DNA of 64,000 bases from Armatimonadota bacterium (GTDB lineage: Bacteria > Armatimonadota > UBA5829 > DSUL01). Below are positions 3,930 through 57,137 of the stretch, piece by piece. Every line of letters starts with the position of its first letter. The stretch's first letter is position 1. The position numbers and the translations under genes are program-made. The stretch spans positions 2,159 through 66,158 of the forward strand of contig JBPOJE010000073.1 in assembly GCA_052033935.1 (NCBI GenBank). Reading direction: 5' to 3'. The notes below the pieces were generated by a model. That model had not been told where the DNA came from, made no database searches, and saw only the letters and a program-made list of their open reading frames with translations.

Positions 3930-6900
3930 ATGACACATCCACAGGCTTATCATGGCTTTAGCTCCGTCAGGTCCCTAGACCTTACCGCCTGCCTCGCAGT
4001 GCTGGCATTCGTGGTCGTGCTGGCCTCCGGCAGTGCGTACGGAGCGCCCCTCGACCGGGAGGCCCACGTCAAGCTCACGGACGGCATCCACGCGTCCGCG
4101 GGCGCGGAGGACCCGGCCTATCTCACCTTCTACGGTGACGCGACGCAGCTTCCCCGCAGGCAGTACAACCTCGGAGATTACTGTTTCTGGGGCAGCGGCT
4201 ACAAGACCAGTGATCTGCACGATGAGAAGCTCAAGGAAGCCGCTATACTCGGCGTGGGGATGGAAATCGCCTGGAACGCGATGCAGGGCGACCGGCCGGT
4301 GAACGAGCGGGCGCCGACGGACCTCACAAGATACGGCGTGGAAGATCGGGTCAACGACTACTTTGGCGACGGCTGCACGATTTCCGCGCAGGTCGGCTAC
4401 ACGCCCGGCTGGGCGAACGGGCTCATGGGCAAGAACTATCCGCCTAATATCGCGGTTGAGCAGGAGGCCCACGTCATGGCCGGGGGGAACACGTCGGTCA
4501 CCCTGGCTCATTCGCCGGTCGTCGTGAACATCCCGCTCTGGTTTCCGCTTATCGTGACACCCTCTCCAGTGCCAAAGACCCGGGTCGAGGATGAGGTCAT
4601 CACGACGAACTTCCAGCCCGACCCGGACCTGCAGGTTGACCTGCCAGGCAGGGTTCTCATCCGCACTTCCAGGAAGCCGATCATTGTCGGGACCGAGCAA
4701 GTCTGGGTGGACGAAGGCGACGGCTGGGTGCTCTGGAACAGGGTGGACAACATTTTCGATGCGCCCCTCGGCGATGCGGTTTACCAGGTGAACCGTCTCG
4801 GCGTCGTCCGGTTCAAACCAATGAACATTGAGCATGGCAGGACACCCGCGACCGGCTCCAGAGTCAAAATCTCGTATGACGCCATTGACGTTCAGTACAC
4901 CGCCGGGGCAGATTACCTGTTCGACAACCTGACGGGCACACTCACGCGAAGGATAGGCGACCTCTCCGGCTTTATCGCCTCTGAAACCTTTGACAGCACA
5001 ACGCTCGACAGCCGATGGCAGTGGATGAACCCGCCCGGGGCCTGGGATGTGAACACCACCCTGGCCGGACACCTGCACTACACCGTCAACTCGACCCCCC
5101 CGGACGGGGTGGGGCACTTCATCTACCAGAGTCTCAGCGGTGCGGGCGACTTCCGGATGTCCGCCAAAATCACAAACGCAGCGTGTTGGGAACCCGGGGT
5201 GCAGAAACCGCTGACCCAGACGGGGCTGATGGTCTATCAGGATGCGCAGAACTGGTTCCGCTACGGCCTGACAACCGACCAGGGCCGCCCGTACCTCACC
5301 CGGTGCGTCAACGGTGTCACAACGACAGCCGGCGGGGGCGGGGAGTACGGGTGGCAGGTCACGGCTCCGCGCTACATCACCGCCATGAAGCACGGAAACA
5401 CCTATACCGTGTACACGCACTACAGGCCCGGCGCCACTGCGCCTGACGGCGATTACCAGTTCGTCTGCACGTTCGACCAGACCCTGACGTACCCGCTCAA
5501 GGTTGGAGTCTCCAGCACCGGTCTGGATACGGCTGGCGTTGACGTGGACGAGGTGACCGTGGAGGTCCCGAGGATTCCCTCCAACGGCAAGGTCGCTGTC
5601 TTCTACAACTACCTCAACCCGGACCCGTGGCTGAGATATGTCCGGGAGACGGTAGGGTATTTCAAGGACAGAATCAAGTACTGGCAGTCGTGGAACGAGC
5701 CTGATCTGTGGATGTGCTGGGCGGGCGGACAGGACCTGCACGCCGTGATGCAAGGCTTGTTTGCTCAGGCGGTCCGCGAGGCCGACCCCGAAGCGCACGT
5801 GATCGGCGGTGGGTATGCCAACGGCTCCAACCATCAGATCGAGACGGTCTATAACATCGCCGGGGCCAACTCGTTCGACTATGCATCCTGGCACCCGTAC
5901 CTGTTCAGCAACCAGGCCCCCGACTCCATCGGCTGGGAGACCGTCGCCCACCAGCGCGCGCGCGACATCATGGCCAGCCACGGGGACGCTGACAAAGAGG
6001 TCTTCTTCGGTGAGATTTCGGCTGGCAGCGGTGTTCTGCAGAGCGGAGGCGGGCTGAACGACCGGAAACAGGCCGACTATGGCGCGCGGCTTCTTCTGCT
6101 GTCGCGCAAGCTTGGCTGGGTAAAGTCGGTTCAGTGGTGGCCGGGAGAGGGCGATCTCGCGGATGTTGGTATGGTTGAGGACAACGAGCACGGCTACCAC
6201 GGGGGCCTCTTCTACCGCATCACCGGGCGACAGCGCGACATATCGAAGCTGGCACGAGTGAATGGCCGCGTCTCGATCGAGGCGGCGCACCATATTGACC
6301 TGACCTACCGGGTTGGAGACCGTATTGTGGTGTCGGGCGTCACCGAACCGGACGTCTGGTTCAATGGGACATTCACTATCGAAGCTCTGGAGAGCGTTTA
6401 CAACCCGCTGTTCGGAACCTCGAAGATCATCCGGATTATTACCAGCCAGAGCGGCAAACCGGACGCCGCGGCAGAAGCGCCGTACGAGGGCAAGCTGGGC
6501 ATTGTGCGGCCGTATGTCGAGCCGAAGCCGATCTTCTACGCCTTCCGCAATCTCGCCTCGAACAGGGGCATCCTCATGGACCTGTGCGACTACGGCGCGG
6601 ACACCCAGATAATCCCGCCCGAGGGGAGCCACCTTCTGAACAGCGTCCGGCTGGGAGTCCGCGACAGGTCGGAGATTGCCGAGGTGACGGTGCGCGCCTC
6701 GCTCACCTGCACGGATGAGAGTGCGAAGCCGTCGCGAGTGGCGGCGGTTTACACGGGGTATGCCGGGCAGAAGGTGACTGTTGTGCACCTCAACCCCGCT
6801 GCACCGGCGCTCTGCTCCGAGCACTGGTCCATGCTGGCGCTCACCCCCTGGTACTTCGGGGTGGTTGGCTCGGTTTCGGGCTTCCAGGGCATTGCCGTGG

Positions 6901-7751
6901 CCGGCGAGCCGTTCACCTCTCTGAACGGGGTAGTTCAGTCGGTCACGATTCCCGAATCCAGCCTGCTGTATGCGCCGGGTGAGGAGTTCACGTTCGAGAC
7001 GTTTGCGGGTGACGGGCTGCATCAGGTGGCCAGGTGGAGTGCGCCCGTGGGCCTGTCAGGCCCGGGCGACATCTCGGTGGACCTGCTCGAGCCGGTCCGT
7101 GCGCGGTATGTGGAGATACAGATCCGAAGGTCCGGCGGCGCCGACAGCGTCGGGATTGACGAGATCGAGGTTCTCGATACTAGCGGTACCAATGTCGCCG
7201 AAGGCAAGCTGTACACGGTGGAGGGCTATCAGGACTGGTTCGCCACCCCCGAGGCTTCGGAGTACGAACTGGGCGAAGCGCGCCATCTGCCCGACAGCAC
7301 GAACGTGCGGCTTCCCGCCGCGGTTCTGTATCTGAAGGGCCAGGGCTTCGGCTACCTCGAGACCACGGACCGGGCCGCCGGTCTGCGTTTCGAAGGCGAG
7401 GTGGATGCGCAGCCGGGCGACCTCGTGACGCTGACGGGTTCGATGGGGACCACTCCGGGCGGCGAGAAGTACGTGCAGGTCCGGTCAATGACCGTCGTGG
7501 GCACCGGCCAGATCGGCTCGCTCGGAATGAACGGGGGCAACCTGCTCGAGCCGATGGTGGACGCGCTTCTCGTGCGAGTCTGGGGGCAGCTGGTGCCGGG
7601 TTCCGTGACCGACAACTCGTTCAGGATCACCACCTTCAACGGGGAGGTCGAGGTGCGGACGAACGCACCGACGAGTCTGCCGGAAGGGGAGATCATCACC
7701 GTGACGGGCGCGGCCGGTTACGATAACGGCCGGGTGATCTACGCTCAGTAG
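3930..7751 (+). CDS. large secreted multidomain glycoside hydrolase (clan GH-A-like catalytic domain with WNEP motif, discoidin/F5-8 type C-like domain, C-terminal beta-rich modules)
   Basis: ORF 3732..7751. Likely start ATG 3930 (MTHPQAYHGFSSVRSLDLTACLAVLAFVVVLASGSAYG signal peptide, GAAAGG upstream). YWQSWNEPDLW (acid/base Glu motif) and FFGEIS (candidate nucleophile) are present. ARYVEIQIRRSGGADSVGIDEIEV is discoidin-like. The C-terminus carries the recurrent module (see findings). Confidence 0.6.
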   Translation: MTHPQAYHGFSSVRSLDLTACLAVLAFVVVLASGSAYGAPLDREAHVKLTDGIHASAGAEDPAYLTFYGDATQLPRRQYNLGDYCFWGSGYKTSDLHDEKLKEAAILGVGMEIAWNAMQGDRPVNERAPTDLTRYGVEDRVNDYFGDGCTISAQVGYTPGWANGLMGKNYPPNIAVEQEAHVMAGGNTSVTLAHSPVVVNIPLWFPLIVTPSPVPKTRVEDEVITTNFQPDPDLQVDLPGRVLIRTSRKPIIVGTEQVWVDEGDGWVLWNRVDNIFDAPLGDAVYQVNRLGVVRFKPMNIEHGRTPATGSRVKISYDAIDVQYTAGADYLFDNLTGTLTRRIGDLSGFIASETFDSTTLDSRWQWMNPPGAWDVNTTLAGHLHYTVNSTPPDGVGHFIYQSLSGAGDFRMSAKITNAACWEPGVQKPLTQTGLMVYQDAQNWFRYGLTTDQGRPYLTRCVNGVTTTAGGGGEYGWQVTAPRYITAMKHGNTYTVYTHYRPGATAPDGDYQFVCTFDQTLTYPLKVGVSSTGLDTAGVDVDEVTVEVPRIPSNGKVAVFYNYLNPDPWLRYVRETVGYFKDRIKYWQSWNEPDLWMCWAGGQDLHAVMQGLFAQAVREADPEAHVIGGGYANGSNHQIETVYNIAGANSFDYASWHPYLFSNQAPDSIGWETVAHQRARDIMASHGDADKEVFFGEISAGSGVLQSGGGLNDRKQADYGARLLLLSRKLGWVKSVQWWPGEGDLADVGMVEDNEHGYHGGLFYRITGRQRDISKLARVNGRVSIEAAHHIDLTYRVGDRIVVSGVTEPDVWFNGTFTIEALESVYNPLFGTSKIIRIITSQSGKPDAAAEAPYEGKLGIVRPYVEPKPIFYAFRNLASNRGILMDLCDYGADTQIIPPEGSHLLNSVRLGVRDRSEIAEVTVRASLTCTDESAKPSRVAAVYTGYAGQKVTVVHLNPAAPALCSEHWSMLALTPWYFGVVGSVSGFQGIAVAGEPFTSLNGVVQSVTIPESSLLYAPGEEFTFETFAGDGLHQVARWSAPVGLSGPGDISVDLLEPVRARYVEIQIRRSGGADSVGIDEIEVLDTSGTNVAEGKLYTVEGYQDWFATPEASEYELGEARHLPDSTNVRLPAAVLYLKGQGFGYLETTDRAAGLRFEGEVDAQPGDLVTLTGSMGTTPGGEKYVQVRSMTVVGTGQIGSLGMNGGNLLEPMVDALLVRVWGQLVPGSVTDNSFRITTFNGEVEVRTNAPTSLPEGEIITVTGAAGYDNGRVIYAQ

Positions 7752-7922
7752 GGTTTTCGGAGAACTCAAAGTCTGCTATGCAGGGGCGCTCCGCCTACGG
7801 GAGGGGCGCCCGCATGGTATCATGAACCTGTCAGCGTGATGCCGGGCAGACGATACCCAGCCACGGCCTGTCGAGGGCCAACGGGTTGTCTGAGCCGGCA
7901 TCGAGTCACAAAGGTTCCTGCT

Positions 7923-28720: not shown

Positions 28721-28780
28721 CTGAGTCCTCATGCCTATGGTGCGACAGGAGGGCCGGGCTGTCAAGGCCGAAAGCGCGGT

Positions 28781-31841: not shown

Positions 31842-31845
31842 TGTC

Positions 31846-33474
31846 TTACGGCTGCTCCACCCGCCTGACTCTGTCAAGGGCGGGAGGCGAGACGGTCTTC
31901 CGCTCCTTGATATAGGAGATAACCGCCTCGCGGGTGGTGTCCCAGGTCTCCCATGTGACCTCGACACCCGGGGCTGCTTCCATCATCTCCATCATCACGT
32001 ACGCCTGTGTGGTGACGGTGTAGAGCTTCTCCGGGCCGGCCGTCTGCCCGCCGATGGTCAGACGCTTCACGACGGGGGTATCGCCGCTTATCTCCCACTC
32101 GGTCGAAGCGCCCGATATGGCGGTCGTAATCTGCTTCTTGCGGCCGGCGCGGGCGTTCAGGCCTCCAATGATCTCATCGCCGGTCATCTTCGCGGTCACA
32201 AGGTGCTGGCGCGTGTATCCTCCGATGAGCCCGAATGCCTGCCCTGCGGTGACCGGGCCGGCGGCAAGCTCACCCTTCACCGAGTTCGCGTCCACGACGC
32301 CCAAATCCGACCCGCCCGCGGCGCGGACGGCATCGGCGACGAGACTGGCGGCGGCGCTCTCCTGCCCTGCCGGCGCCGGCAGGATGGCGGCCGAGGCGCT
32401 ACCGATCACCTCCTGCGCCAGCGCGGCGGCCCGGTCGCGATAGGGCTGATACGCTTTCAGCACATCCGGGTCTTCCGGCACGTCGTCTCCGATGGCGATG
32501 AGCGGCCCTTCCGGATACGAAGCGTCGAGCGGCACGTTCCGCAGCCTGTTCCAGAGCTTGTGCCTGCCGTTGACCGATGTGATCTCAGCAGCGCCGCTGT
32601 CCTTGCGGACGATGAAGTCAATGCGCCCTAGGTTGCGGGCCCCGTAGCCCGTCTGCGTGACGAGCGTATCGCCGATCCAAGTCCACTCCCGAATGGCCGT
32701 ATGCGTGTGACCGCCGACGATAAAATCTATGCCCGGCACCTCGGCGGCCATCTGTTTGTCCGGGTTCACCCCCATATGCGACAGGGCGATCACGACGTCC
32801 GCCTGCTTTCGCAGTTCGGGCACGATGCGTTTGGCGGTCACGATGGGATCGTCAATGATGATGTCGCGGATGCTGGGCGGCCAGTGCAGCGATATGGTGT
32901 CCAGCGATGCCAGCCCGAAAATCGCAATGCGCACCCCCTGGATTTCCTTGATGATGTGCGGCTGCAGCCTGTCCCACTGCCCGCCGGAAGCTGCGCGGAT
33001 GTTTGCCGCTAGGAACGGGAAGGTGGCGTGGCGCATCGCGTCCCGCGTGACCTGCAGCCCGAAGTCGAACTCGTGGTTGCCCGCGGTCATAACGTCATAG
33101 CCCACGGCGTTCATTGCGCTGATGGTGGCGGCTCCGCCGGAGATGTAGTCCTCCGGCTGCCCGTGGATCACGTCGCCACCTTCGAGCAGAAGCACGTTGG
33201 GCATCTCCGCGCGAATTTGCCTGACAACGGTGGCCGCGCGCGCGAGCCCGCCCGGGCCTTCACCCGGCACGATACTGCCGTGCAGGTCGTTCGTGTGCAG
33301 AATGGTGATGAGGACGTAAGCCGGGTCGGCACCAGCCACACCCGACAGCGACGCAAACGCCACGCTGGCCGCCAGCCACGCCGTGCGCGAATGCAGCTTC
33401 AAACCAGGCCTGACCAGGCGGCGGAACAGCCATGCAACGCCGCCGATCGCGGTAAGCCACTTCAGGTTAAGCAA
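31846..33474 (-). CDS. bifunctional metallophosphatase / 5'-nucleotidase (UshA-like)
   Basis: ILHTNDLHGSI, LLLEGGDVIHG, GNHEFDFG are calcineurin-like metallophosphoesterase motifs. A C-terminal 5'-nucleotidase domain follows, and there is an N-terminal signal/TM. Confidence 0.85.
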   Translation of the reverse strand: MLNLKWLTAIGGVAWLFRRLVRPGLKLHSRTAWLAASVAFASLSGVAGADPAYVLITILHTNDLHGSIVPGEGPGGLARAATVVRQIRAEMPNVLLLEGGDVIHGQPEDYISGGAATISAMNAVGYDVMTAGNHEFDFGLQVTRDAMRHATFPFLAANIRAASGGQWDRLQPHIIKEIQGVRIAIFGLASLDTISLHWPPSIRDIIIDDPIVTAKRIVPELRKQADVVIALSHMGVNPDKQMAAEVPGIDFIVGGHTHTAIREWTWIGDTLVTQTGYGARNLGRIDFIVRKDSGAAEITSVNGRHKLWNRLRNVPLDASYPEGPLIAIGDDVPEDPDVLKAYQPYRDRAAALAQEVIGSASAAILPAPAGQESAAASLVADAVRAAGGSDLGVVDANSVKGELAAGPVTAGQAFGLIGGYTRQHLVTAKMTGDEIIGGLNARAGRKKQITTAISGASTEWEISGDTPVVKRLTIGGQTAGPEKLYTVTTQAYVMMEMMEAAPGVEVTWETWDTTREAVISYIKERKTVSPPALDRVRRVEQP

Positions 33475-33486
33475 ACGAAGGCCTTT

Positions 33487-34200
33487 CTAGTATTCGCCCA
33501 TAACGTAGCGGTCGTTGGCGTGACACTCGGGGAAGTCCCAGTGGGCGTACTTCAGTTGACCGCGCGAGTCCTTCCATTCCGGGCTGTAGGGCTTGACGTT
33601 CGTTACCACGTGCCCGTCCATCATCACCATCAGCATCACCCAGCCCGAAGTGGGGCTGTTGACACCCGAGCGCTCGTAGTGATGCCTGCTGTGCCGGTCA
33701 CTCAGGAGATAGAACTGGGCAGGCCGCGTGCACTGGTCGAACTTCCGCGGCCGGTACACCCTGCCCGGCGCGTAGGCGTACCCCAGACACTCGTTGAAGC
33801 GGTAGTCTATCTCGTTGCGCACGAAGTTGTTCCAGCAGGAGTCGCAAGGGTCGGGACACTGCCACATGGTGTCGCCTTTGAGATAGGAGTTCAGGTCGCG
33901 GTACGGGCCGCTCGTGTTTCTGAGGAAGGAGTCCTGCGCGCTGATGTTGGGGTTACCGTTGCCATACACATTGCAGACCCGTGGGCCGTAGCCGTTGTGG
34001 TCATCCACATACATCCGCACAGCCGTGGCGATCTGCTTGAGATTGTTGATGCATTGCGTTGTCTTGGCCTTACGCTTAGCACGCGCGAAAACAGGGAACA
34101 GGATTGCTCCCAGAATGGCGATGATCGCAATGACGACAAGCAGTTCGATCAGCGTGAAGCCCACACGGTTGGACCTGTCCGAGAGCCGTCTCATAACCAT
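33487..34200 (-). CDS. prepilin-type N-terminal cleavage/methylation domain protein (DUF1559 / H-X9-DG family)
   Basis: [32 protein letters not shown] is the class III signal. C-terminal ...MDGHVV is the H-X9-DG tail. Start is probably ATG 34200. Confidence 0.8.
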
Positions 34201-34304
34201 TGTAATGTCTCCCGAATAATGATTCGCGAAAGCACCCTTACGAAGCATTTTGCGCCTTCCGAAGAGCGCCTGTCAACCAGCCCGCCGGAACTGGTACGCA
34301 GGTA

Positions 34305-36155
34305 CTAGTTGAGCGTGACAATGTCGGCCGCGGAGCGGACTCTCAGCCGTCTCTGTACCTTGCCCGCGATGGTGGCGGTGGAGATGATGCCCGTCACTTG
34401 CACAGGGCGGCCCACGGCCGGAGCGCTCCAGCCGGACAGGCCTGACACATCCACCCGCAGCCCTGTGTAGCCGTAGCCGTCAACGAGCGTGCTCCCGTCG
34501 TCAATGTACAGGTAAAAGCCGCTGATCGAGGCCTTCACCCTGCCCCACGTCCGCACAAGCAGTCCGATGTTGTTGAGTCCCACTCCCCCCTGCACGCCCG
34601 GAGTGTAAGTGCCGAGCGCCTCACCGCCCAGCCGCTCGTTCGACAGCCCGAGCGGCACGGGCAGACTTCCGGTTCCGGACACAGTAACGCTCGACGCCGA
34701 AATCTCCCGTTCGCCGTTGAGCATGCTGAGCGTGCCGACGACGTTTACCCTGTCGCCAACCGCAACAATCGCGCCGCTGTTGACTTTGATTGCCGCCGAT
34801 CGGTCGTCTTCAGAAACGTAAAACGCGCCGGAAAACACGGATGTTACTGTCTTGCCGGACAGGACAACGGCCGTCCCGTTCGGCTCAAGGCGCGCATCGC
34901 CGATTCGCGGAGACGAACCATCGGGGCCGTAGTGAACGGCCACTGGCGGCGAGACCGACTTAAGGCGGTTGCTGGAGGCATCGGTGGCTCGCGCTATGAT
35001 CGTGTGGACGCCGATAGCTTGCCCGGCCGGATCCCAGGTGAAGCTGTATGGCGCGGCGGTATCTGTCCAGAGAAGCTGGCCGTCCACATAGAACTCGACA
35101 TTGTAAATGCCGCTCGCGTCCGATGCGTCCGCCGTCACCGTAACAGGCCCTGTGACGAGTGCTCCCGCAGCTGGAGCGGTGACCGAGACGGCCGGTGGGG
35201 TCAGGTCCACGGCGTGGATGTTGATGGTGGCATAGACGGCGCGGTGATCGCTGCCGAAGTGCGAGCTGCGGGTGGGGTTGAAGGCGAACCCTCCCGGCTG
35301 CTTGACGCCCGAGTCGCGGTCCCACCAGATATAGTCCAGCCGCTTGCCGAACAAGTCCATCATCGTCTGCCCGCTGAACGAGTTGTGTGTGTGCTGGCTG
35401 CTGGGGTCGGTGAATTCGATGTCTATCTCGTTCCAGGTGGACGTGCCTGTATCGGTGTTGAGATCGTTGGTGATAATGCGCGCGGTTCCGGGGAATCCCG
35501 ACATGCCGGGCGAGCCCGTCTGTCCGTTGACGATCCACTCCTTCAGCCGGATGGCTTCTTGGCGGCGTTCTTCCTCGGTCACTTCGTGTCCGTTGAGGAT
35601 CGCCCCGCCCCAGAGCAGCTTGCCCGTAAACAGCCCGAACGCTTCGTCCGTGCCGAGCTTCCGGAATAGCCTGCCGGCGTACTTGAGCACGTAGCCGTTG
35701 TCTATTGTCTCCAGCACCTTCTCGCCGAGATACCACTCGCTGAGCCGGTGCTCCACGAGACCCGTTCTCCAGAAGAAGCCGATGCCGCTTGTGTTGTTGA
35801 CGCCCTGCGGGGTGCGCGAGCTTGCCCAATCCGCCCCGGTGTACTGCTCCAAGAACTGCTCGACCTTCACGCGGTCGGTCTCGCTGAGGAGTTCCTGCAT
35901 CCCGATGACGGCGATGGGAGGATGTGTTGATCCCGAAGGGTTGATGCTGGCCACCCACTGCGCGAAACGCTTCGCGGTATCGTAGGTGACGGCGGAGGTG
36001 TCCTGCTCGGTGTAGCGCCCGCCGGAGTAGATGTTGCACTGGCAGACGGTGATGGTTCCGGCGCATGCAGGAATGAAAACCGTGAGCGCAAGAAAAGCAG
36101 CGCAAATCAACCAGTGATGAAGTTTGTGCATTGCGGCGAGCGAGACGACAGGCAA
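34305..36155 (-). CDS. secreted endonuclease/exonuclease/phosphatase (EEP) family hydrolase with Ig-like domain and recurrent C-terminal module
   Basis: Signal MHKLHHWLICAAFLALTVFIPACAG. RLDYIWWD...GSDHRAV is the EEP C-terminal catalytic motif. APYSFTWDPAG is Ig-like. The C-terminal FYLYIDDGS...GLRV...VQVTG module is shared with other secreted proteins. Confidence 0.65.
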   Translation of the reverse strand: MPVVSLAAMHKLHHWLICAAFLALTVFIPACAGTITVCQCNIYSGGRYTEQDTSAVTYDTAKRFAQWVASINPSGSTHPPIAVIGMQELLSETDRVKVEQFLEQYTGADWASSRTPQGVNNTSGIGFFWRTGLVEHRLSEWYLGEKVLETIDNGYVLKYAGRLFRKLGTDEAFGLFTGKLLWGGAILNGHEVTEEERRQEAIRLKEWIVNGQTGSPGMSGFPGTARIITNDLNTDTGTSTWNEIDIEFTDPSSQHTHNSFSGQTMMDLFGKRLDYIWWDRDSGVKQPGGFAFNPTRSSHFGSDHRAVYATINIHAVDLTPPAVSVTAPAAGALVTGPVTVTADASDASGIYNVEFYVDGQLLWTDTAAPYSFTWDPAGQAIGVHTIIARATDASSNRLKSVSPPVAVHYGPDGSSPRIGDARLEPNGTAVVLSGKTVTSVFSGAFYVSEDDRSAAIKVNSGAIVAVGDRVNVVGTLSMLNGEREISASSVTVSGTGSLPVPLGLSNERLGGEALGTYTPGVQGGVGLNNIGLLVRTWGRVKASISGFYLYIDDGSTLVDGYGYTGLRVDVSGLSGWSAPAVGRPVQVTGIISTATIAGKVQRRLRVRSAADIVTLN

Positions 36156-36205
36156 GACTGCCGCCCGCCGGGTGGCAGGGCGGCAGTCAGAAGCGAAGCA
36201 GGGGT

Positions 36206-36916
36206 TTACTTGCGGCGAAGCACACCGGAGAATCCGGCGAGGCCCATCGCCAGCGCAACCAGCGACGCAGGCTCGGGGACGACGTTGAGGTCGTCCGCGA
36301 TTGCGTAGTTGGCATACGAGGGAAGGTCGGTAAGGCTCAAGTAGCCCCTGTAGAAGTTGATCGTGGTCGGTTTAACGGCATTAGCGCTGTAGAGCGCCAC
36401 ATCCGTCGCGGCGGCAGTGCCGTCCACCCACAACGACCAGGTCTGGGCCGCCCAGTCGAGCACGGCCTTGAACTGATAGACCTGAGCGCCGTTGAAGCTG
36501 GACTGATAGACCCGCCACGCGCCTCCCGAGTAGTACTGGATGGCCCCACCGGTGAAGCCGAATGCCAGGCTGCGATCGGCAGCGCCTGCGTCCTGGAGAG
36601 AAACCCACCACTGTCCGGTGTTGTACATCGCCTTCGCCAGCTTGACCTCCACAGTCACGAGGTCGCCAACCTGGCCGATGGAATGCCTTGCGGCACGCCC
36701 GGCATTACCGGACACCATGTACGACTGCGCCCCGGCAATCACGTACGTCGGATCGTTGGTCACACGGTAGTTGGTGCTGGCCGGGTCAACGACCCAGTCG
36801 TTCTGGCCCGTCAGCCCGCCGGCAACATACTCCGGTGCCTCGAAGCCGGTGGCGAAGTTCGCGCTGGCCGGCAACGCAACTGCCAGAAACGCCATGAGCA
36901 CAAAGACTGTCCTCAT
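36206..36916 (-). CDS. PEP-CTERM sorting-domain secreted protein
   Basis: Signal peptide MRTVFVLMAFLAVALPASA. The C-terminus VPEPASLVALAMGLAGFSGVLRRK is a PEP-CTERM motif plus TM helix plus basic tail. Confidence 0.85.
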   Translation of the reverse strand: MRTVFVLMAFLAVALPASANFATGFEAPEYVAGGLTGQNDWVVDPASTNYRVTNDPTYVIAGAQSYMVSGNAGRAARHSIGQVGDLVTVEVKLAKAMYNTGQWWVSLQDAGAADRSLAFGFTGGAIQYYSGGAWRVYQSSFNGAQVYQFKAVLDWAAQTWSLWVDGTAAATDVALYSANAVKPTTINFYRGYLSLTDLPSYANYAIADDLNVVPEPASLVALAMGLAGFSGVLRRK

Positions 36917-37243
36917 CCTATTCTCGTTCTCCTTTCCCGTCTCCAGAGGAGACGAACACTTCCCTTACCTCCGTACGAAGGGGCAGGGAAACTCAAAAAC
37001 CAGGTTCTTGAGGACTATATTACCATTCTAGCGTGCAAAAAACGTGCCAACCCGGGCTTTTGACGAACTTATGCGCGCAAAAGCGCCTGTGTCAGTTGTC
37101 TTGAAGAGGCAGGGTAGCGCTTGATTTCGCGCATTATTCGTGGTAGTTTCGGAGGTACTCAGCCGGGCGGACGCGCTCTGGGGGGAAGCGCGGCACGTGT
37201 CTGGAACAAGCGTTGACTCGAGTGTGAAAGGAGACCGCGCACA

Positions 37244-40090
37244 ATGCGACCCTTCTATCTGCTGATTCTGGCTCTTGCCATTGCAGGGCTCCCGTCCGCT
37301 GCGGGCGCCCAGATGACCATTGACGACTTCGAGAGCGGTACGACAAGCGGCTGGCGCGTGCAGGATCTCCCGTATGCTGCAATCAGCCTGGTGTCGCCAG
37401 GCGCGGGCGGCTCCGGGAAAGCCATAGCCATTCAGGAGATTGCCGGATCGCTTGGTGGTCACAGCGCATATGCCTACGCCTCCCGGGAGTTCTCGCCCGC
37501 TGGCAACTGGAGCGGCTACACCACGCTCGAGATGGACGCCGCGATAAGCGCGGGCGAGTGGAACGGCTACTCCATCCGGGTGTACAACAACAACAAGAGT
37601 GTGTGGGTGCACGGGTTGCAGAGCGACTCGGCGATTCCGGGCTTCCGTACCCTCAAGTTCGACGTATCCGGCATCGTCCGCGACCAGATTACGAGCTTTC
37701 TGATCTACGTGAACCGGACGTCGCAGAACGCCGAGCAGACGCTGACGCTCGACAATATCAGGCTGACTAACAACCCGGTCACGATTGATCCGGTGCGGGT
37801 GATCGAAAACTTCGCCTCCGGGGACATCTCGGCGTGGACTCCCGGCGGGACATCACCGAACTTCCACTGCAGCCTCACGTCCGTGTCTGAGAACGCGCCG
37901 GGCGACACCTCGACGCCCGCGCGAGCAATCGCGGCCACCCTCATCGGCAAATCCAACTCGTCGCTTTTCCGGTGGCGGCCGACAAAAACGATGGACTGGA
38001 CGGACTACAAGACGCTGGAATTCGAGGCGAAGCTGGCGGAGGGCACTGCGACCGACGGCTTCTCGGTGCGCATCTACAACGCGTTGCTGCCGGCGCGCAT
38101 CAAGAAGTTCGTGCCGGGTGCCGCTGGATATGCGACCTGGCAGGTTGACGTCTCTGGAATCGAGCGCGACCAGATCAATGAGGTGATCTTCTACCTGAAC
38201 CGCACGCTTGCCTACGACACCACCGCTTCGCCCGCCCGCAACTGCATGCTGCGCATTGACAACCTGCGCCTCACGCAGAACACCGTCCCGGCAGGGCCCA
38301 ACGTCGTTTACGTGCAGGATTTCGATCCGGGCCTCTTCGACGAGTGGAACTGGTCCCACTATGTTTACCCATCGCTCAATTCGGACGCGGTCACGGCTCC
38401 GTGGGCACTCGACCTGATGCTCACCAGTGCGTCTTCAACATCAGCCTACAGCCGGGAGACGCTCGTGTTCAACGACACCCCGACGCAGGACTGGGAGGAC
38501 TACAACTCGCTGATGTTCGAGGTGAAGGTGGTGCCGGGGCCAAACCAGCCGAACTACCCCGTCGGCTTCAGCGTGAACGTTGTGAACGGCGGAACCTTCC
38601 AGACCGGAAGCGGCACAGCCGGTCCAGGCGGCGGCAATCTCTGGTTCTATCCGTCAGGCTACGACGTCTGGGAGACATTCACGCTCGACCTCAAAGCGCC
38701 CGGCGTGATGAGCGACGTGGATCAGGTGTCGGCGTTGCGATGGTACGTCAACCGCTGCAATCGCGGGGACTACAGCATCATGACCGGCACCGGCCAGATT
38801 CTGCGGCTGGACAACATCCGGGTTTCAAAGGAGCCGGCGCCGAAGTACGACGTCAGCAACCCGAACGTGGACGACTTCGAGGACGGGGACATCGCGGACT
38901 GGTACTATGTCAGCCAGCACACCAACCCCGACACCGGTGACGTTCTGCCGGGTGTATCGCGGGAACTCACCAGCGATGCGGCGAGCGGCGGCAAGGCGCT
39001 GGTCATAACCTGCCTGACCCCTCCGGGCAGCTCGTCGGCGTACACGCGCAAGACTCTGCACGCTGACTGGAGGGGCTACAAGACCCTCGAGTTCGACGCG
39101 AAGGTGGCGGACTCGCGCACAAGCCAGGGCTTCTCGGTGCTGTTGAGGCACCTGTCGGGCTATGCCGCCAACCGGCACGAGTTCTACCCGACAAACGAGT
39201 GGCAGACCTTCAGGGTGGACATATCGAAGGATAAGGTGGGCACAACCGCCACGGACGCTCGCGCCGAGGTTATCGGCCTGCTGTTCTACGTGAACCAGAT
39301 CACTGGCTGGGGTTCAGAGCAGGGCGGCGCGCAGAAGCTGTACCTCGACAACATCCGGCTCACGAACGACGACCCCATCACGACCTCGTTCACGGCGGTG
39401 GGCGGGGTCAAGAGCGCCGACACGGGCACGATCGTTACTCTGACCGGCGCGGTCAGCACGGGCAGCTTCCAGAACAAGGCACCGGACAAGAACGCCCCCG
39501 CGACGCTTCGGGCGGTCTTCTTCGTTGAGGACCTCGACCGCAGTTCGGCCATCCCTGTTGTGATCGGGGGTGCTGTAACGGGCGTCACCGACGTCCCTTC
39601 GGGCTCGAAGGTGGATATCACGGGTATCCTGACCGCCGGGCCGGGCTTGCGCTACATCTATGCGACCAGCATCAGCACGCCGGTTCCGGGATTCGCGATA
39701 CCCGACCCGGTGGTTCTGCTCAACAAGAACACCGGCGCGGAAGCCATCGGCATTGACCAGCCCATTCCGGGGTTCGCCGGGGCCGATACGACCGGCATGC
39801 TGGCCGAGGTGACGGGCAAGATTCTGGCCGTGGGCACGGACGCGATCGGCCGCACCTACATGTACATTGACGACGGGTCGGCTGTGGTGGCCGACAACGG
39901 CGCGATGGGCCTGAAAGTCTATGACTGGACGGCAACAACGGCCGTGGCAGGAAACGTGGGCAAGCATGTCCGCGTGACGGGGTTCGTGATGACCGAGAGC
40001 GAGTTGAACGGCACGACCTCCACATGGAAGCCCTACCGCACCTTCTGGCCGAAGGCCGATCTGCCAAACCCGATCATACTGGTCAACTAG
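37244..40090 (+). CDS. large secreted protein with four tandem carbohydrate-binding-module-like (jelly-roll) repeats and recurrent C-terminal module
   Basis: Signal MRPFYLLILALAIAGLPSAAGA. Four units each begin (I/V)DDFE.G....W and end ..LDNIR(L/V)(T/S): MTIDDFESG...TLDNIRLTN, VIENFASGD...LRIDNLRLTQ, YVQDFDPG...ILRLDNIRVSK, NVDDFEDGD...KLYLDNIRLTND. The C-terminus reads MYIDDGSAVVADNGAMGLKV...VRVTG. Confidence 0.6.
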   Translation: MRPFYLLILALAIAGLPSAAGAQMTIDDFESGTTSGWRVQDLPYAAISLVSPGAGGSGKAIAIQEIAGSLGGHSAYAYASREFSPAGNWSGYTTLEMDAAISAGEWNGYSIRVYNNNKSVWVHGLQSDSAIPGFRTLKFDVSGIVRDQITSFLIYVNRTSQNAEQTLTLDNIRLTNNPVTIDPVRVIENFASGDISAWTPGGTSPNFHCSLTSVSENAPGDTSTPARAIAATLIGKSNSSLFRWRPTKTMDWTDYKTLEFEAKLAEGTATDGFSVRIYNALLPARIKKFVPGAAGYATWQVDVSGIERDQINEVIFYLNRTLAYDTTASPARNCMLRIDNLRLTQNTVPAGPNVVYVQDFDPGLFDEWNWSHYVYPSLNSDAVTAPWALDLMLTSASSTSAYSRETLVFNDTPTQDWEDYNSLMFEVKVVPGPNQPNYPVGFSVNVVNGGTFQTGSGTAGPGGGNLWFYPSGYDVWETFTLDLKAPGVMSDVDQVSALRWYVNRCNRGDYSIMTGTGQILRLDNIRVSKEPAPKYDVSNPNVDDFEDGDIADWYYVSQHTNPDTGDVLPGVSRELTSDAASGGKALVITCLTPPGSSSAYTRKTLHADWRGYKTLEFDAKVADSRTSQGFSVLLRHLSGYAANRHEFYPTNEWQTFRVDISKDKVGTTATDARAEVIGLLFYVNQITGWGSEQGGAQKLYLDNIRLTNDDPITTSFTAVGGVKSADTGTIVTLTGAVSTGSFQNKAPDKNAPATLRAVFFVEDLDRSSAIPVVIGGAVTGVTDVPSGSKVDITGILTAGPGLRYIYATSISTPVPGFAIPDPVVLLNKNTGAEAIGIDQPIPGFAGADTTGMLAEVTGKILAVGTDAIGRTYMYIDDGSAVVADNGAMGLKVYDWTATTAVAGNVGKHVRVTGFVMTESELNGTTSTWKPYRTFWPKADLPNPIILVN

Positions 40091-40135
40091 CCGGAGCTTT
40101 CCTCCTTGCGGCCTCCGGGCTGCAAGCTCCGGGCA

Positions 40136-40173
40136 TCCCCCCGGCCGATTTCGGCCGGGGGGGATGTTTTTTT
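40136..40173. terminator. bidirectional rho-independent terminator between convergent genes
   Basis: CCCCCGGCCGA-TTT-CGGCCGGGGGGG perfect GC hairpin is followed by ATGTTTTTTT on the + strand and preceded by A/U-rich sequence on the - strand. It lies between the stops at 40090 (+) and 40184 (-). A second hairpin CCGGAGC...GCTCCGG sits at 40091-40132. Confidence 0.75.
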
Positions 40174-40183
40174 GCGTACGGGG

Positions 40184-40795
40184 TCAGAGGCCCCGCAGGT
40201 GCGAGGTGTCGTTCAGGACGTGCAGGGCGGCCGCAGCGCCGGCTTCGAGGATGCTCAGGCTGGCGTTGGCCGCGTGGAACTTGAGGGCTGCCGGGACAGG
40301 AAGGTCGAGGGCGGCGCAGATCAGCCCGCTAAGCGACCCGTAGTGCACGGTGGCAAGCACCGTATCGTCCGGGCCATGGGCCTCGACAGCCTCACAGATG
40401 AACTGCCCGCACCGCTCGATCACCTCTTCGAACCGCTCCGCGCCGGGCGGGCGATGCGCGATCGGGTCGGCCTCCCAGCGCGCGCAGAGGTCCGGATAGC
40501 GCTCGCGGAACTCGTCGCGCGTCCAGCCCTGTACGTTGCCGATGTGGCACTCGCGCAGAAGCGGGGTCGGATGCACGGGCAGGCGGCCGAGCGCCTCCGC
40601 TATCGGCGCGGCGGTGTCACGCGCCCGGCTGAGGTCGCTGGAGTAAAGCGCGGCGATGGGTTCGCGTTTCAGCCGCTCCGCCGCAGCCCGCGCCTGCCTG
40701 CGTCCAAGTTCCGTGAGGGGCGAGTCCACCTGCCCCTGAAAGCGGTTGCCAAGGTTGGATTCGCACTGTCCGTGCCGCACGAGCAGCAGCTTCAT
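40184..40795 (-). CDS. histidine phosphatase family protein (phosphoglycerate mutase-like)
   Basis: MKLLLVRHGQCESNLGNRFQGQVDSPLTELGRRQA is the RHG catalytic motif. The track ORF start 40930 adds a non-homologous leader. Confidence 0.8.
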   Translation of the reverse strand: MKLLLVRHGQCESNLGNRFQGQVDSPLTELGRRQARAAAERLKREPIAALYSSDLSRARDTAAPIAEALGRLPVHPTPLLRECHIGNVQGWTRDEFRERYPDLCARWEADPIAHRPPGAERFEEVIERCGQFICEAVEAHGPDDTVLATVHYGSLSGLICAALDLPVPAALKFHAANASLSILEAGAAAALHVLNDTSHLRGL

Positions 40796-53137: not shown

Positions 53138-53407
53138 GTGTCTGAGAGGATGATGAAGTTCAGCGAGGAGTTCCGGGACGAGTCGGTGCGGCTGGTTCTG
53201 GAGAGCGAGAGGACGGTGGCGGAGGTAGCGCGGGATACTGGAATCAGCGTGTGGACCTTGCGGGGTCGGATCCAGAAGAGGTGCGAGGCCGTCAGGTCGT
53301 CTTTGTCCCAGAGGCGTGAGACCCTTGAGCAGGAGATTCGGTGCCTTCGCCGGGAAGTGTTAGTTCTGCGTCAGGAGCGTGAGATCCTAAAAAAAGCGGC
53401 GGCGTAA
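53138..53407 (+). CDS. IS3 family transposase OrfA (HTH + leucine zipper)
   Basis: MSERMMKFSEEFRDESVRLVLESERTVAEVARDTGISVWTLRGRIQK...LRREVLVLRQEREILKKAAA ends in the A-run frameshift site. Confidence 0.8.
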   Translation: MSERMMKFSEEFRDESVRLVLESERTVAEVARDTGISVWTLRGRIQKRCEAVRSSLSQRRETLEQEIRCLRREVLVLRQEREILKKAAA

Positions 53408-54287: not shown

Positions 54288-54341
54288 GGTGTCCACGAAA
54301 ACATGGGAGGTCCAATTGTGGTCCGAGAGGAGACCTTCAGG

Positions 54342-55256
54342 ATGAAATGTCTATCAGTCCGCGTGGTGCTTGTTCTTGTGTGGTTGCTTTCGGCTTGCTC
54401 CATAGCCTCAGCAGCCACGGTTCCTGATTGGTTGGTGAGGCCGGGAACCATCGGGCACGCTCTGTCCCTTAGCCACGCTCTGTCCCTTAGCGATGGATCC
54501 CAAGTATGCCTTCATGTGGTGGTCGTGGACAAGATCCACTTCAGGCAGAAGCCGGTCTATTTCACAGTCCGCGAATGCTTCGACTGGAAGTCGTGCCTGA
54601 TCGTTTACGGACAACCTTCGCCCCTGCTACGGCACGGGCAGACAATAGACATCGAGGGAACCCTGACAACGCTCCCGAACGGGCATAGGGCGATTGTAAG
54701 GCCGAAAGTATCAGGTTATGTGGACAAAGCGGGTAAGCTCCTCTACCACGGACCGCTCATAAAGTGGCCTTGGTCTCGGACGGAATGGGAGTGGAAGACC
54801 GACCTCACCGTTGTGGAAGCAGTTGACCAGGCTTCCTATACGCTTTCGGATACCGGGACTCCTCCTGATGAGCCGATTACTAACTCCACTTCCGGCCCGG
54901 TCTTCTGTGCGACAATCGCCGATGCGCGAGCACAGTATAGCCCAACCGAGCGGGTGCTTGTGGAGCTTCAGTGCAGGCCGCTTGAGAATCCGGTTTCAGG
55001 CTCTTTCACGTTGAAAGAGGACGGTGGCGCGGATAGCATTACCATCTACTACACGGGTTCCGTAGCGGCTTCCGACAGGATTAACAAGCTCGTCGGTGCC
55101 ATACAGAGAGACGCTGGAACCAACTATTGGATTGAGGTGGACTCCGGCCCAACTGGCAATCGCAAGATCCTATTGGAAGCGTACATACCGCTACAAGCGG
55201 AACCATCGCATGGGCAAAGACATTTGCGGACACCACTACATTGCCTGCGCCACTGA
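54342..55256 (+). CDS. hypothetical secreted protein (lower-GC island)
   Basis: Signal MKCLSVRVVLVLVWLLSACSIASA. It contains an 18-bp perfect tandem duplication (HALSLSHALSLS). It is possibly the N-terminal part of one larger gene continuing in 55241..57121. Confidence 0.5.
   Translation: MKCLSVRVVLVLVWLLSACSIASAATVPDWLVRPGTIGHALSLSHALSLSDGSQVCLHVVVVDKIHFRQKPVYFTVRECFDWKSCLIVYGQPSPLLRHGQTIDIEGTLTTLPNGHRAIVRPKVSGYVDKAGKLLYHGPLIKWPWSRTEWEWKTDLTVVEAVDQASYTLSDTGTPPDEPITNSTSGPVFCATIADARAQYSPTERVLVELQCRPLENPVSGSFTLKEDGGADSITIYYTGSVAASDRINKLVGAIQRDAGTNYWIEVDSGPTGNRKILLEAYIPLQAEPSHGQRHLRTPLHCLRH
54456..54491 (+). repeat. perfect 18-bp tandem duplication (2 copies) inside coding sequence
   Basis: CACGCTCTGTCCCTTAGC at 54456-54473 is repeated exactly at 54474-54491. 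Confidence 0.9.
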
Positions 55257-57121
55257 GCGGAAAAGTAGTATCGCGCACGTTCCCTTGGCTCGGTTACTTC
55301 TACATTCTGGGGATGGCATCGTTCGTGGCCACGGGTGACACTGTCGATGTGGAAGGGGAGTTGGCGACAGACGATGGGGAGCGCGTAGTCGACGCCTCGT
55401 CCACTACGCTTGTTGATATTGCGTCCGTCGCGTCGGTGGGCTTGAATGGCCGTTCGTTGGCAGGTGGGAATTTCAATGTGTTCACCCCCGGAGCCCACGG
55501 TGCGTATGGCCTGAACAATGTTGGTTTGCTTGTTGGTGTTTGGGGCAGAGTGACCGCTGTCGGCTCCGACTATTTCTACCTTGATGACGGCTCTAATTGC
55601 GACGATGGTTCCGGGTCTGGCGGGGTGAGAGTTGTCAACGTGTCTGGTTATATGCCAGGTGCCGATGACTACGTTGCCGTAACAGGCGTCTCAGGTCTTG
55701 CCACGTATGACACTGATCTTGCCAGAACTGTCCGGTTAGCCCGCACCGTCGATCTTTCCGGTATCTGCCCGACTCTTCCGCCGGCTAACTTGACCGTTGC
55801 TCCAACGGGCAGCGGGAAGCTCACTCTATACTGGAGCGGTGTGTGCGGAGCGACAGGCTATAACGTCTATCGAGGCACGATTTCCGGTGGTGAAAACTAC
55901 TATACGCCTGTCAATGGTGGAACTCCGGTAACCACAGAGAGCTACTCCGGTAGTGGTGTCTATACCTATACGGATACCGCGCTGACCGACGGAGTCGAGT
56001 ATTTCTACACGGTAAAGGCTGTGGGTGGGTGTGGCGAGAGTCAAGCGTCGGAAGAGGACAGCTGCATTCCTGATCCAAACGGTGCGCCGTGGGATACTGG
56101 TGATGTTGCAGCAATCTTGGCCTCCATCAGGAATTCGTTCCCCGGGGTTTCAATACCATACGGCTGCATCCGGGCACGAGGGCCGGACGGAAGAGATTAT
56201 CTGGACGGGATTAGCAGTCCAATCATACCTGACGTCACAATCGATCCCACGACGAGAGATGTAGTCTTTTCCGACGGAACCAGAATTGCAGCACCGAATG
56301 ATATTGCCGACATTGACTCATACACGCTTGGGTCAATGCAGATCCTTACAACGATCGAACCGAGAATAAAGAACGCCCAATCCGGGCCATTCAGAAAGGT
56401 CTACACTCACCATAACTATCGTGGAGTAAAAGGTCGTTTCCGGCTTCCTGACTCGAGTGTCGGCATCAGAGTCACGCCTTACACGTACCCTTCCACCGGA
56501 AAGAGCACCAAGGACATACCCTATGTGTATCTTGGCGGGCTTGGCAATCGCTACACCGCCGTTGATGCGGGGCTGTACTGGGGGCCAACGGCTAACGACC
56601 CGCAAAGCCGTTGGAGAATGTTTGGCAAGATCAAGAACTCCAAGAGAGACGAGTGGATTAACACGCCTCCAAATGGGATCTTTGACGATAATCAAGATGT
56701 CAACGCTGAGTACATAGCCTCAAGCATAGTTAATGGCCGGGTGCTGCTGAGAATAACACCAGTTGGCGGAGGTCAGACTGGGGTTATCACGATAGACATA
56801 TCGGATTTCGCAAAGACGGGGCAAGGTGTCCACCTGAAGCGTGTCCATTCGATTGCCCAAAACAATCTCATTGGAACAGACAAGGCCAAGGGATACCGAG
56901 AAACGGGGTCATATTTCCAGTCCAGTGCCTGGTTTGATGGCCAGGTAATGGATCAGAATGGAACATACAGCAACTGGGGCACCTCGCAAACACCCTACTC
57001 GACATATCATGGCAGGTTTCCTAACCTCTCCAGCATCGTCAGTTTCCAACTGCAGTTTCCACAGAACCTCTATCCGTCGAAATGTTTCTCAGGTGATCTC
57101 TATGTGCACATCACCCTGTGA
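55241..57121 (+). CDS. secreted fibronectin-type-III domain protein with recurrent FYLDDGS...GVRV module (lower-GC island)
   Basis: ANLTVAPTGSGKLTLYWSGVCGATGYNVYRGTISGG...YTDTALTDGVEYFYTVKAV is an FN3 domain. GLNNVGLLVGVWGRVTAVGSDYFYLDDGSNCDDGSGSGGVRV is the shared module. The track start TTG 55241 has no signal peptide. The frame is open from 55136 and overlaps the upstream ORF end, so a frameshift fusion is possible. Confidence 0.5.
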   Translation: MPAPLSGKVVSRTFPWLGYFYILGMASFVATGDTVDVEGELATDDGERVVDASSTTLVDIASVASVGLNGRSLAGGNFNVFTPGAHGAYGLNNVGLLVGVWGRVTAVGSDYFYLDDGSNCDDGSGSGGVRVVNVSGYMPGADDYVAVTGVSGLATYDTDLARTVRLARTVDLSGICPTLPPANLTVAPTGSGKLTLYWSGVCGATGYNVYRGTISGGENYYTPVNGGTPVTTESYSGSGVYTYTDTALTDGVEYFYTVKAVGGCGESQASEEDSCIPDPNGAPWDTGDVAAILASIRNSFPGVSIPYGCIRARGPDGRDYLDGISSPIIPDVTIDPTTRDVVFSDGTRIAAPNDIADIDSYTLGSMQILTTIEPRIKNAQSGPFRKVYTHHNYRGVKGRFRLPDSSVGIRVTPYTYPSTGKSTKDIPYVYLGGLGNRYTAVDAGLYWGPTANDPQSRWRMFGKIKNSKRDEWINTPPNGIFDDNQDVNAEYIASSIVNGRVLLRITPVGGGQTGVITIDISDFAKTGQGVHLKRVHSIAQNNLIGTDKAKGYRETGSYFQSSAWFDGQVMDQNGTYSNWGTSQTPYSTYHGRFPNLSSIVSFQLQFPQNLYPSKCFSGDLYVHITL

Positions 57122-57137
57122 TAGGATTGCTGCATCC

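Follow-up and report, generated by a model that had tools for sequence, protein, structure and literature searches.

The window analysed here, a stretch of 64,000 nucleotides from an Armatimonadota bacterium (positions 2,159 to 66,158 of contig JBPOJE010000073.1), encodes four large proteins, labelled p1 to p4 (Table 1), that share a recurrent, beta-rich module. An initial annotation had described it as a C-terminal module pair of four large secreted, hydrolase-like proteins, recognized by one motif with several variants. The six variants of the motif that it quoted are all present in the translations and the module is indeed common to the four proteins, but it consists of a pair of homologous domains, between which the flavours of the motif are split. 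This pair, which we term A-B, is predicted by structure modelling to be a fixed two-domain tandem of OB-folds (oligonucleotide/oligosaccharide-binding folds), approximately 200 amino acids (aa) long.

The similarity of the module among p1-p4 is far above chance and survives proper alignment. In BLASTP comparisons among the window proteins p2 matches p4 (E=2.4e-24, 39% identity over 184 aa), p3 (E=1.6e-16 over 202 aa) and p1 (E=2.6e-7 over 131 aa). A hidden Markov model (HMM) made from 63 homologues found outside the window together with the p2 copy, and run against all stop-to-stop stretches of the whole window in six frames, gave independent matches in p4 (6.5e-37), p3 (1.8e-18) and p1 (9e-16), while p2 was recovered by construction; the next-best match in the window, an A-like stretch in the open reading frame (ORF) that lies just upstream of p4, is marginal (E about 1e-3). 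The coordinates of the modules were verified by translation.

Table 1. Carriers of the A-B module, their domains and other features of the window. iE, independent E-value; AF2, AlphaFold2; EEP, endonuclease/exonuclease/phosphatase; CBM, carbohydrate-binding module.
Feature	Position	Strand	Remarks
p1	3930..7751	+	Large exported protein; ATG 3930 gives a signal peptide, frame open from 3732; C-terminal A-B
p1 OB-A	7269..7508	+	GYLETTDRAAGLRF ... GDLVTLTGSM..GGEKYV; HMM modA iE 9e-14; AF2 pLDDT 93-98
p1 degenerate OB-B	7566..7748	+	HMM modB E 0.04-0.2; keeps LLVRVWG and ITVTG
1,054-aa protein	7836-11000	+	C-terminal FGE-sulfatase; A-B absent
Operon-like row	29611-36916	-	Very short gaps; the next four genes and p2
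ABC permease	29611-30495	-	
5'-nucleotidase	31846-33474	-	
Prepilin N-methyl/DUF1559 protein	33487-34248	-	
PEP-CTERM protein	36206-36916	-	
p2	34305..36155	-	Exported; signal peptide, probable EEP domain, Big_7 Ig, C-terminal A-B
p2 linker + OB-B, aa 500-616	34308..34658	-	Linker PLGLSNERLGGE...GLNNIG; motifs GLNNIGLLVRTWG, YIDDGS, VQVTGIIS
p2 OB-A barrel, aa 416-499	34659..34910	-	FYVSEDDRSAAIKV ... GDRVNVVGTL..NGEREI
p3	37244..40090	+	Signal peptide, four divergent ~175-aa CBM-like repeats, C-terminal A-B pair
p3 N-terminal repeats	37244-39390	+	Pattern DDFE.G....W ... LDNIRLT
p3 OB-A	39398..39676	+	FFVEDLDRSSAIPV; insertion in beta1-beta2 region; HMM modA iE 8e-9
p3 linker + OB-B	39707..40087	+	HMM modB 1.8e-8
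DUF6785 + DUF6784 protein	43513-45414	+	E 1e-97
IS3-family OrfA piece	53138-53407		HTH_Tnp_1; degenerate
IS3-family transposase piece	53425-53940		HTH_21; degenerate
IS3-family transposase piece	54048-54287		rve C-terminal; degenerate
ORF upstream of p4	54303..55256	+	Signal peptide; marginal A-like OB, aa 110-142, modA E 1.4e-3
p4	55136..57121	+	Open frame; A-B pair, then fn3 (1.2e-4), then ~350-aa domain matching no family
p4 OB-A	55181..55411	+	Begins upstream of TTG 55241; lacks the E..DRSSGIRV hairpin; HMM modA iE 5.8e-6
p4 linker + OB-B	55433..55756	+	LAGG, GLNNVGLLVGVWG, YLDDGS, VAVTGVS; HMM modB 1.8e-26; internal
PD40 beta-propeller protein	56958-58262		In the low-GC stretch with p4
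tmRNA gene	58603-58970	+	Tag peptide ANTNNYSYALAA; directly right of the low-GC stretch
429-aa Beta_helix protein	60967-62256	+	A-B absent

The structural model that the initial annotation had suggested is clear-cut. An AF2 prediction of p2 aa 416-616, based on a 99-sequence alignment (pLDDT 97.5, pTM 0.92), consists of two confident barrels fixed in mutual orientation: a five-stranded one (residues 14-80 of the model), a linker (81-117) that is ordered and non-regular (pLDDT >96), and a second five-stranded one (118-199). Each is a closed five-stranded beta-barrel with the OB topology, as judged by structure comparison. OB-A has as its signature the hairpin F-Y-I-E-x-x-D-R-S-S-G-I-R-V, followed by G-D-x-V-x-V-x-G-x-L-x-T-x-x-G-E-R; the linker carries P-L-G-x-x-N-x-x-L-G-G-G; and OB-B carries G-L-N-N-I-G-L-L-V-R-T-W-G upstream of a hairpin F-x-I-D-D-G-S-G, then V-x-V-T-G-I-S-S. 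The 'DRS' form of the motif first noticed belongs to OB-A and the 'DDGS' form to OB-B, each being the beta2-beta3 hairpin of its own barrel (in p2, F-Y-V-S-E-D-D-R-S-A-A-I-K-V in A and F-Y-L-Y-I-D-D-G-S...G-L-R-V in B). The profiles of the two domains match each other in hhalign (93.9% probability, E 1.5e-7), and A and B are therefore old, diverged duplicates. In the family as a whole, the positions that hardly vary are the GG of LGGG, G-L-N-N-I-G-L-L-V-x-x-x-G, I-D-D-G-S and the G of V-T-G-I-S, and these motifs are the same whatever the type of passenger to which the pair is fused.

No Pfam or NCBIfam model reached threshold over the A-B module of p1-p4, and at this level the module deserves to be called uncharacterised; it is not, however, an orphan in terms of fold. 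Among 99 family members, Pfam returned sub-threshold matches to the OB clan only (RMI2 15, tRNA_anti-codon 11, BOF 4), the best match of the family profile in the PDB is YgiW (1nnx, E 0.005), and one homologue (P0001) is labelled 'YdeI (BOF family)' by JGI. The unit thus belongs to the OB-fold superfamily, nearest to the periplasmic BOF (YgiW/YdeI) group, and stands outside every described family. The BOF model itself (PF04076) has no match to p1-p4 at E≤1, the best of its four sub-threshold matches being at E 4.5e-5, and its members are single stand-alone domains of ~100-130 aa, where the copies of the window are tandems within proteins of 600-1300 aa. As for PF01336 (tRNA_anti-codon), a faint match to OB-A of p1 (aa 1227-1256, E 0.01) scores 16.2 bits, against a gathering threshold of 27.

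Known tails fare no better, as had been anticipated. Models of the C-terminal domain (CTD) of the type IX secretion system (T9SS; TIGR04183, and PF18962 Por_Secre_tail) have no match at E≤1 in p1-p4, in NCBIfam or in Pfam, and an OB barrel is predicted where those domains have a beta-sandwich. PEP-CTERM (PF07589, TIGR02595) is not matched in p1-p4 and the tail is absent from 133 of 133 family representatives examined; that these models work in the source genome follows from the gene next to p2, which matches PEP-CTERM. LPXTG models from Pfam and NCBIfam find nothing in p1-p4, the C-termini of the module being a beta-strand (...R.LR.R...DI...) devoid of hydrophobic helix. Nothing among the CBM, CARDB and Big models matches inside the A-B region of p1-p4 and of the 99 members, the Big_7 match of p2 lying upstream, and Pfam detects no SLH, dockerin or cohesin in the same set. 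The module is described neither in the literature nor in the domain libraries that were searched. The fold, then, was already known, and the novelty lies in the family, in the obligate A-linker-B tandem and in its deployment as a tail that many proteins have in common.

The copies of the window differ in what they retain: p2 and p4 have the full set of motifs, p3 has part of it, and p1, whose OB-A is normal, has lost it in OB-B. In p2, OB-B (HMM modB 2.9e-34) ends at the stop codon; upstream of the pair, Pfam recognizes Big_7 (5e-22, aa 321-386) and, under cutoff, Exo_endo_phos (2.5e-4). The label of hydrolase-like protein therefore holds weakly for p2, and no hydrolase family is found in p1 or p3. 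In p3, OB-B keeps YIDDGS and VRVTG, LGGG having become NTGAE and GLNNIG GADTTG. Its repeats, too diverged for BLASTP self-matches, yield only weak Pfam matches to 3keto-disac_hyd and to CBM_11, the latter in the N-terminal repeats. The p1 protein has sub-threshold matches to the concanavalin-like families DUF1349 and GH43_C2, and a search for a sequence relative of p1 in the PDB gave none. Its OB-B, with a shortened linker and with LGGG, GLNN and DDGS lost, is still predicted by AF2 as a five-strand barrel (pLDDT ~90, pTM 0.82) in a model guided by the family alignment.

Part of the window (12.4 kb, 28289-40652) is collinear, with 90.3% DNA identity, with JAXGLP010000002.1 of 'Armatimonadota bacterium AnMBR.bin211'. 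Compared with their orthologues on that contig, p2 has 92-94% aa identity with a ratio of non-synonymous to synonymous substitution rates (dN/dS) of ~0.2, and p3 has 88-91% with dN/dS 0.12-0.15. The A-B modules themselves are slightly better conserved than their passengers (94% protein identity in p2, 91% in p3), and their dN/dS values, 0.22 and 0.12, respectively, indicate that in p2 and p3 they are functional coding sequences under purifying selection.

The fourth carrier lies, as had been noticed, in a stretch of lower GC content (53.1-58.6 kb, GC 0.53-0.57 versus ~0.63 elsewhere in the window). Pieces of a degenerate IS3-family transposase, with its catalytic core interrupted, mark the left edge of this stretch. 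In p4 the A module starts near 55181, ahead of the first start codon of a frame that is open only from 55136 and that overlaps the upstream ORF in another frame, from which we conclude that the p4 gene is probably frameshifted, be it a pseudogene or an assembly error, and that the upstream ORF is probably its N-terminal part. The assignment of OB-A in p4 was also made by eye, TIAWAKTF..LSGKVVSRTF..YFYI being compared with the family consensus. The idea that the module travels with accessory genes is not supported: it relied on this one frameshifted island copy, whereas the other three have native composition and p2 and p3 are collinear with a related metagenome-assembled genome (MAG). Between p3 and the low-GC stretch, the gene for the DUF6785 + DUF6784 protein is followed by genes for an ADP-ribosylglycohydrolase, a GDPD phosphodiesterase and a ROK-like protein, all without relation to the module.

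Around p2, the operon-like row has the appearance of a locus for the scavenging of extracellular nucleotides; the ABC permease is separated from the 5'-nucleotidase by about 1.35 kb. This setting is what gives some substance to the view that A-B binds nucleic acids, tethering enzymes to the extracellular DNA (eDNA) of a biofilm matrix or, in p2, to the substrate of a nuclease. The p2 protein is probably of the EEP type, it stands in a row with a nucleotidase and a permease, and its A-B copy is basic (pI 9.4), possibly a substrate-related adaptation of a copy carried by a probable nuclease or phosphatase. In Foldseek, where no solved structure superposes on the pair (TMq ≤0.38) and every match is to one barrel, the closest neighbours are OB-folds that bind ssDNA or tRNA; in the PDB the family profile also has a match, weak and short of significance (E 0.15), to the OB at the N-terminus of 9sf8, an EEP protein. 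The p2 copy is nevertheless the exception in a family of acidic modules (the median pI being 4.9 in A and 5.6 in B), the copies of p1, p3 and p4 having a net charge of -4 to -10, and this makes generic DNA binding unlikely despite the structural neighbours, a likeness that is generic for the fold. As the passengers are moreover overwhelmingly unrelated to nucleic acids, we consider this explanation very unlikely indeed.

Beyond the window, an HMMER search exhaustive over 1.84 billion representatives clustered at 50% identity shows a large family, with 6,319 clusters at E≤1e-3, 4,815 at ≤1e-10 and 2,655 at ≤1e-30. Two word-indexed searches returned matches of which all those with a taxonomic name were Armatimonadota MAGs. 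A 9-mer chosen from an alignment of B domains only, GLNNIGLLV, gave 192 confirmed matches over 185,579 species genomes; among the 80 of these that were listed, the named ones were all Armatimonadota, plus one Abditibacteriota, and each of three genomes had at least seven loci. Since one in four copies of the window carries this 9-mer exactly, the real number of copies per genome is probably several-fold higher. Judged from the names attached to these sequences, the A-B family appears, as far as can be seen, to be restricted to Armatimonadota, and the suspicion that it is lineage-specific was well founded.

B also exists without A. A form of ~145 aa, in which a signal peptide precedes the PLGxxNxxLGGG linker and OB-B, is represented by 516 proteins at E≤1e-5, each taxonomically named one being from Armatimonadota. 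The existence of this protein shows that the linker and B can stand on their own as a unit, and they probably make up the core of the module's function. Its gene ends a cassette, syntenic in at least seven genomes, in which it follows a Memo gene on the opposite strand, a gene for a PEP-CTERM protein of ~210 aa and one for a secreted protein of ~245 aa (for example L017:3852-6405, and also L005, L030, L051, L054 and L081-L087). The ~245-aa protein carries the motif MTDMWISLP...PFNH and has no relative in Pfam or the PDB; no A- or B-like domain was found in the partner proteins of the cassette. After the stand-alone B gene come, in five genomes, a polysaccharide deacetylase gene in convergent orientation and the genes of two C-terminal processing proteases (Peptidase_S41/PDZ), and in the other two genome groups additional A-B carriers are inserted in the cassette.

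The position of the module in its carriers is the second feature to consider. Of the 102 genomic ORFs whose 3' end is complete, 75 have the end of B no more than 10 aa from the stop codon, 17 have it at 11-30 aa and 10 farther away; among the 133 representatives, which are high-scoring ones, the distance from the end of the module to the C-terminus is at most 30 aa in 109 and exceeds 100 aa in 21. The pair is therefore C-terminal in about 82-90% of its carriers. The description of a C-terminal module suits p1, p2 and p3; it fails for p4 and for some 16-18% of the relatives, where the module is internal, as well as for proteins with two or three tandem copies. A invariably precedes B (AB 105, ABAB 18, ABABAB 3 of the 133, in a top-scoring list that over-represents multi-copy proteins), and one protein, P0096, is a signal peptide, an N-domain of ~60 aa and three A-B units, with little else. 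A ~60-aa N-terminal element, with the motif Y.I.W.S.NSGGG..SGG.Y.L..TVGQ.AAG.......H..GFW, stands directly before one to three A-B units in P0010, P0020, P0032, P0082, P0096 and P0112, small proteins with no other domain.

Such a bias toward the C-terminus, together with very diverse passengers and restriction to a phylum, is what one would expect of an export or sorting signal read by an outer-membrane machine and possibly cleaved, in the manner of T9SS CTDs. The invariant LGGG just before OB-B could then be a processing site, and the two Peptidase_S41/PDZ proteases next to the stand-alone B gene would be in their place. Yet these S41 genes converge on the B gene instead of being co-oriented with it, the internal or N-terminal copies (21 of the 133 representatives, as well as p4) and the tandem copies, in proteins that are almost wholly A-B units, do not behave as signals, and a stably folded domain of 200 aa is large for that purpose; adding that the models of known sorting tails are unmatched and that the fold differs, we find a sorting signal decidedly improbable.

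More than 25 unrelated families are found as passengers fused to A-B. Among 66 proteins, partners include Beta_helix/NosD (18), DUF1565, Disaggr_assoc, RCC1-like propellers, SBBP, LVIVD, CarboxypepD_reg, CHB_HEX_C, Ig, RHS, FGE-sulfatase, lectin, NHL, GSDH, Peptidase_C1 and LRR, and to these Peptidase_S8, GH65 and a 'choice-of-anchor Q' protein (P0009) must be added. Signal-like N-termini are present in 90 of the 116 representatives that start with Met. Two proteins of the window devoid of A-B, at 7836-11000 and 60967-62256, have domains of types that are A-B-tailed in other Armatimonadota. When ORFs around 88 loci were clustered in search of a receptor or machine, no universal neighbour of the carriers came out. 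Prepilin/DUF1559 neighbours recur at eight loci, which we judged compatible with chance for a family that we take to be hugely expanded in Armatimonadota; a 1,111-aa CarboxypepD_reg neighbour, considered as a TonB-dependent receptor in a SusC/SusD-like pairing, proved to carry A-B in its own right, along with Ig-like repeats.

This collection of passengers suggests as main rival to the reading that we shall favour a substrate-targeting CBM, the tandem binding a common polysaccharide, from plants, algae or microbial exopolysaccharides, and bringing enzymes to it. OB-folds that bind oligosaccharides exist, the B subunits of AB5 toxins among them. The commonest partners are of the beta-helix/NosD/DUF1565/Disaggr_assoc kind (18 of 66), with CHB_HEX_C, lectin and GH65 besides; p3 consists of CBM-like repeats, p1 has weak concanavalin-like matches, and tandem copies are typical of CBMs. 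The same motifs are nevertheless found, identical, on Peptidase_S8, Peptidase_C1, EEP, RCC1, LRR, NHL, RHS and FGE-sulfatase proteins, the stand-alone B protein is conserved with no enzyme attached, and no Pfam CBM family matches the module. The heterogeneity of the passengers combined with restriction to one phylum makes a self ligand likelier than a food polysaccharide, which is a ubiquitous substrate, and we therefore regard a CBM as a rather doubtful, if serious, explanation.

We are thus led to favour, tentatively and at somewhat less than an even chance, a role of A-B as a non-catalytic module for docking or retention, specific for a shared ligand of the envelope or matrix, as the architecture of the carriers suggests. 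Among the functions initially proposed (surface anchoring, S-layer association, substrate binding), surface anchoring or binding fits best. Export, C-terminal bias, more than 25 types of passengers, invariant motifs, tandems, phylum restriction and multiple copies per genome together argue for a binding module over a catalytic or substrate-specific domain. Carriers would be exported through Sec by means of their signal peptides, after which A-B, itself non-catalytic, would bind one ligand common to all of them, present in the envelope or extracellular matrix of Armatimonadota, an outer-membrane or surface protein and a surface glycan being the candidates. The polar and glycine residues of LGGG, GLNN and DDGS, clustered around OB-B, would form the putative binding site, and passengers as diverse as beta-helix enzymes, propellers, proteases, a nuclease or phosphatase and CBM arrays would be held at the cell surface, with tandem A-B-A-B(-A-B) copies raising avidity. 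The B half of p1, having lost the motif set, may no longer bind.

Several observations weigh against docking. It is the architecture of the carriers that speaks for it, and no cultured member of the Armatimonadota is among the carriers identified. Internal or N-terminal placement, in ~16-18% of copies including p4, would be needless in a pure tail anchor. Many of the partners act on glycans (beta-helix, GH65, CHB_HEX and, in p3, the CBM repeats) and would suit a CBM-like role equally well. Finally, p1 and p3 have lost all or some of the invariant motifs, p3 being still under constraint, a combination which implies that the barrels may also be structural elements or spacers.

In its general form this last point amounts to seeing in A-B an inert spacer, stalk or folding aid that has no specific ligand. 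Both p1 and p3 keep their barrels after the loss of much of the motif set, internal positions between other domains do occur, and degenerate copies such as that of p1 could have this role. It would be unusual, however, for near-invariant polar and glycine motifs of surface type (G, NN, DDGS) to persist over thousands of clusters in a mere spacer, and neither the conservation of stand-alone B in a syntenic cassette nor the strong C-terminal bias would be expected of it. For the family as a whole we hold the spacer to be distinctly unlikely.

Docking may also be envisaged on a larger scale, the A-B tail being half of a phylum-specific system of surface display in which stand-alone B and its cassette partners form or regulate a scaffold. 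Enzymes and adhesins tagged with A-B would hang on one envelope receptor or scaffold, and the PEP-CTERM protein of ~210 aa, the secreted protein of ~245 aa, the nearby S41/PDZ proteases and the polysaccharide deacetylase would be its partners. We give this extension little credence at present, and treat the cassette as a candidate lead for a receptor or scaffold, nothing more.

In soils, hot springs and anaerobic digesters, Armatimonadota abound as degraders of polysaccharides; to our knowledge, almost nothing is known of the means by which their exoenzymes are displayed or retained. With more than 6,000 clusters, several copies per genome, a confident predicted structure and clear invariant motifs, the A-B family provides a marker for the surface and secreted proteome of this phylum, as well as a candidate handle for surface display. 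Were its ligand a dedicated receptor, a new principle of protein anchoring would be at hand; were it a polysaccharide, A-B would found an OB-fold CBM family. A-B is a solid new domain family and an entry point to exoenzyme display, not yet a new mechanism.

How A-B stands among known systems may now be considered. The BOF proteins (PF04076 / COG3111; YgiW, YdeI/OmdA, SipA) come closest, as small extracytoplasmic OB barrels with a signal peptide. They are, however, single stand-alone barrels of ~100 aa from Proteobacteria, whereas A-B is a tandem confined to Armatimonadota and attached to large passengers, set apart by invariant motifs of its own (LGGG, GLNNIGLLV.TWG, IDDGSG). For BOF proteins, cationic ligands are predicted, and physical binding to outer-membrane proteins links YgiW to OmpF, YdeI to OmpD and SipA to OmpA (PMC6370654). 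This offers a plausible analogy for an acidic docking module. The OB-folds that bind nucleic acids (PF01336, RPA, Ten1/Stn1, RMI2, the MCM N-terminal domain, HIN) are cytoplasmic or nuclear and basic, unlike the exported and acidic A-B, and every match of the family to them falls under the family threshold. Those of the YhcR/NucH/ExeM type (cd04486; 9sf8/9sf9) share with p2 the association of an OB barrel with a secreted EEP or nuclease enzyme, and presumably a similar hairpin ('F-[FY]-[IV]-x-D...D..[ST]xGI.V ... GD.V.V.G'); in that type a single OB precedes the nuclease, whereas A-B is a tandem, mostly C-terminal, with passengers that are not nucleases.

There remain the modules that sort proteins to the surface. 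The T9SS CTD is a beta-sandwich, PEP-CTERM and LPXTG tails contain a transmembrane helix, S-layer homology (SLH) domains are helical and dockerins are EF-hand-like. A-B differs from all of them in sequence, in being an OB-barrel and in that it can be internal or repeated; it resembles them in being a lineage-restricted tail, present in multiple copies, on unrelated exported passengers. If the surface-display system just outlined were true, we would have in it an OB-fold analogue, to be placed beside T9SS-CTD attachment, the anchoring of SLH domains to secondary cell wall polymers (SCWP) and cohesin-dockerin assembly.

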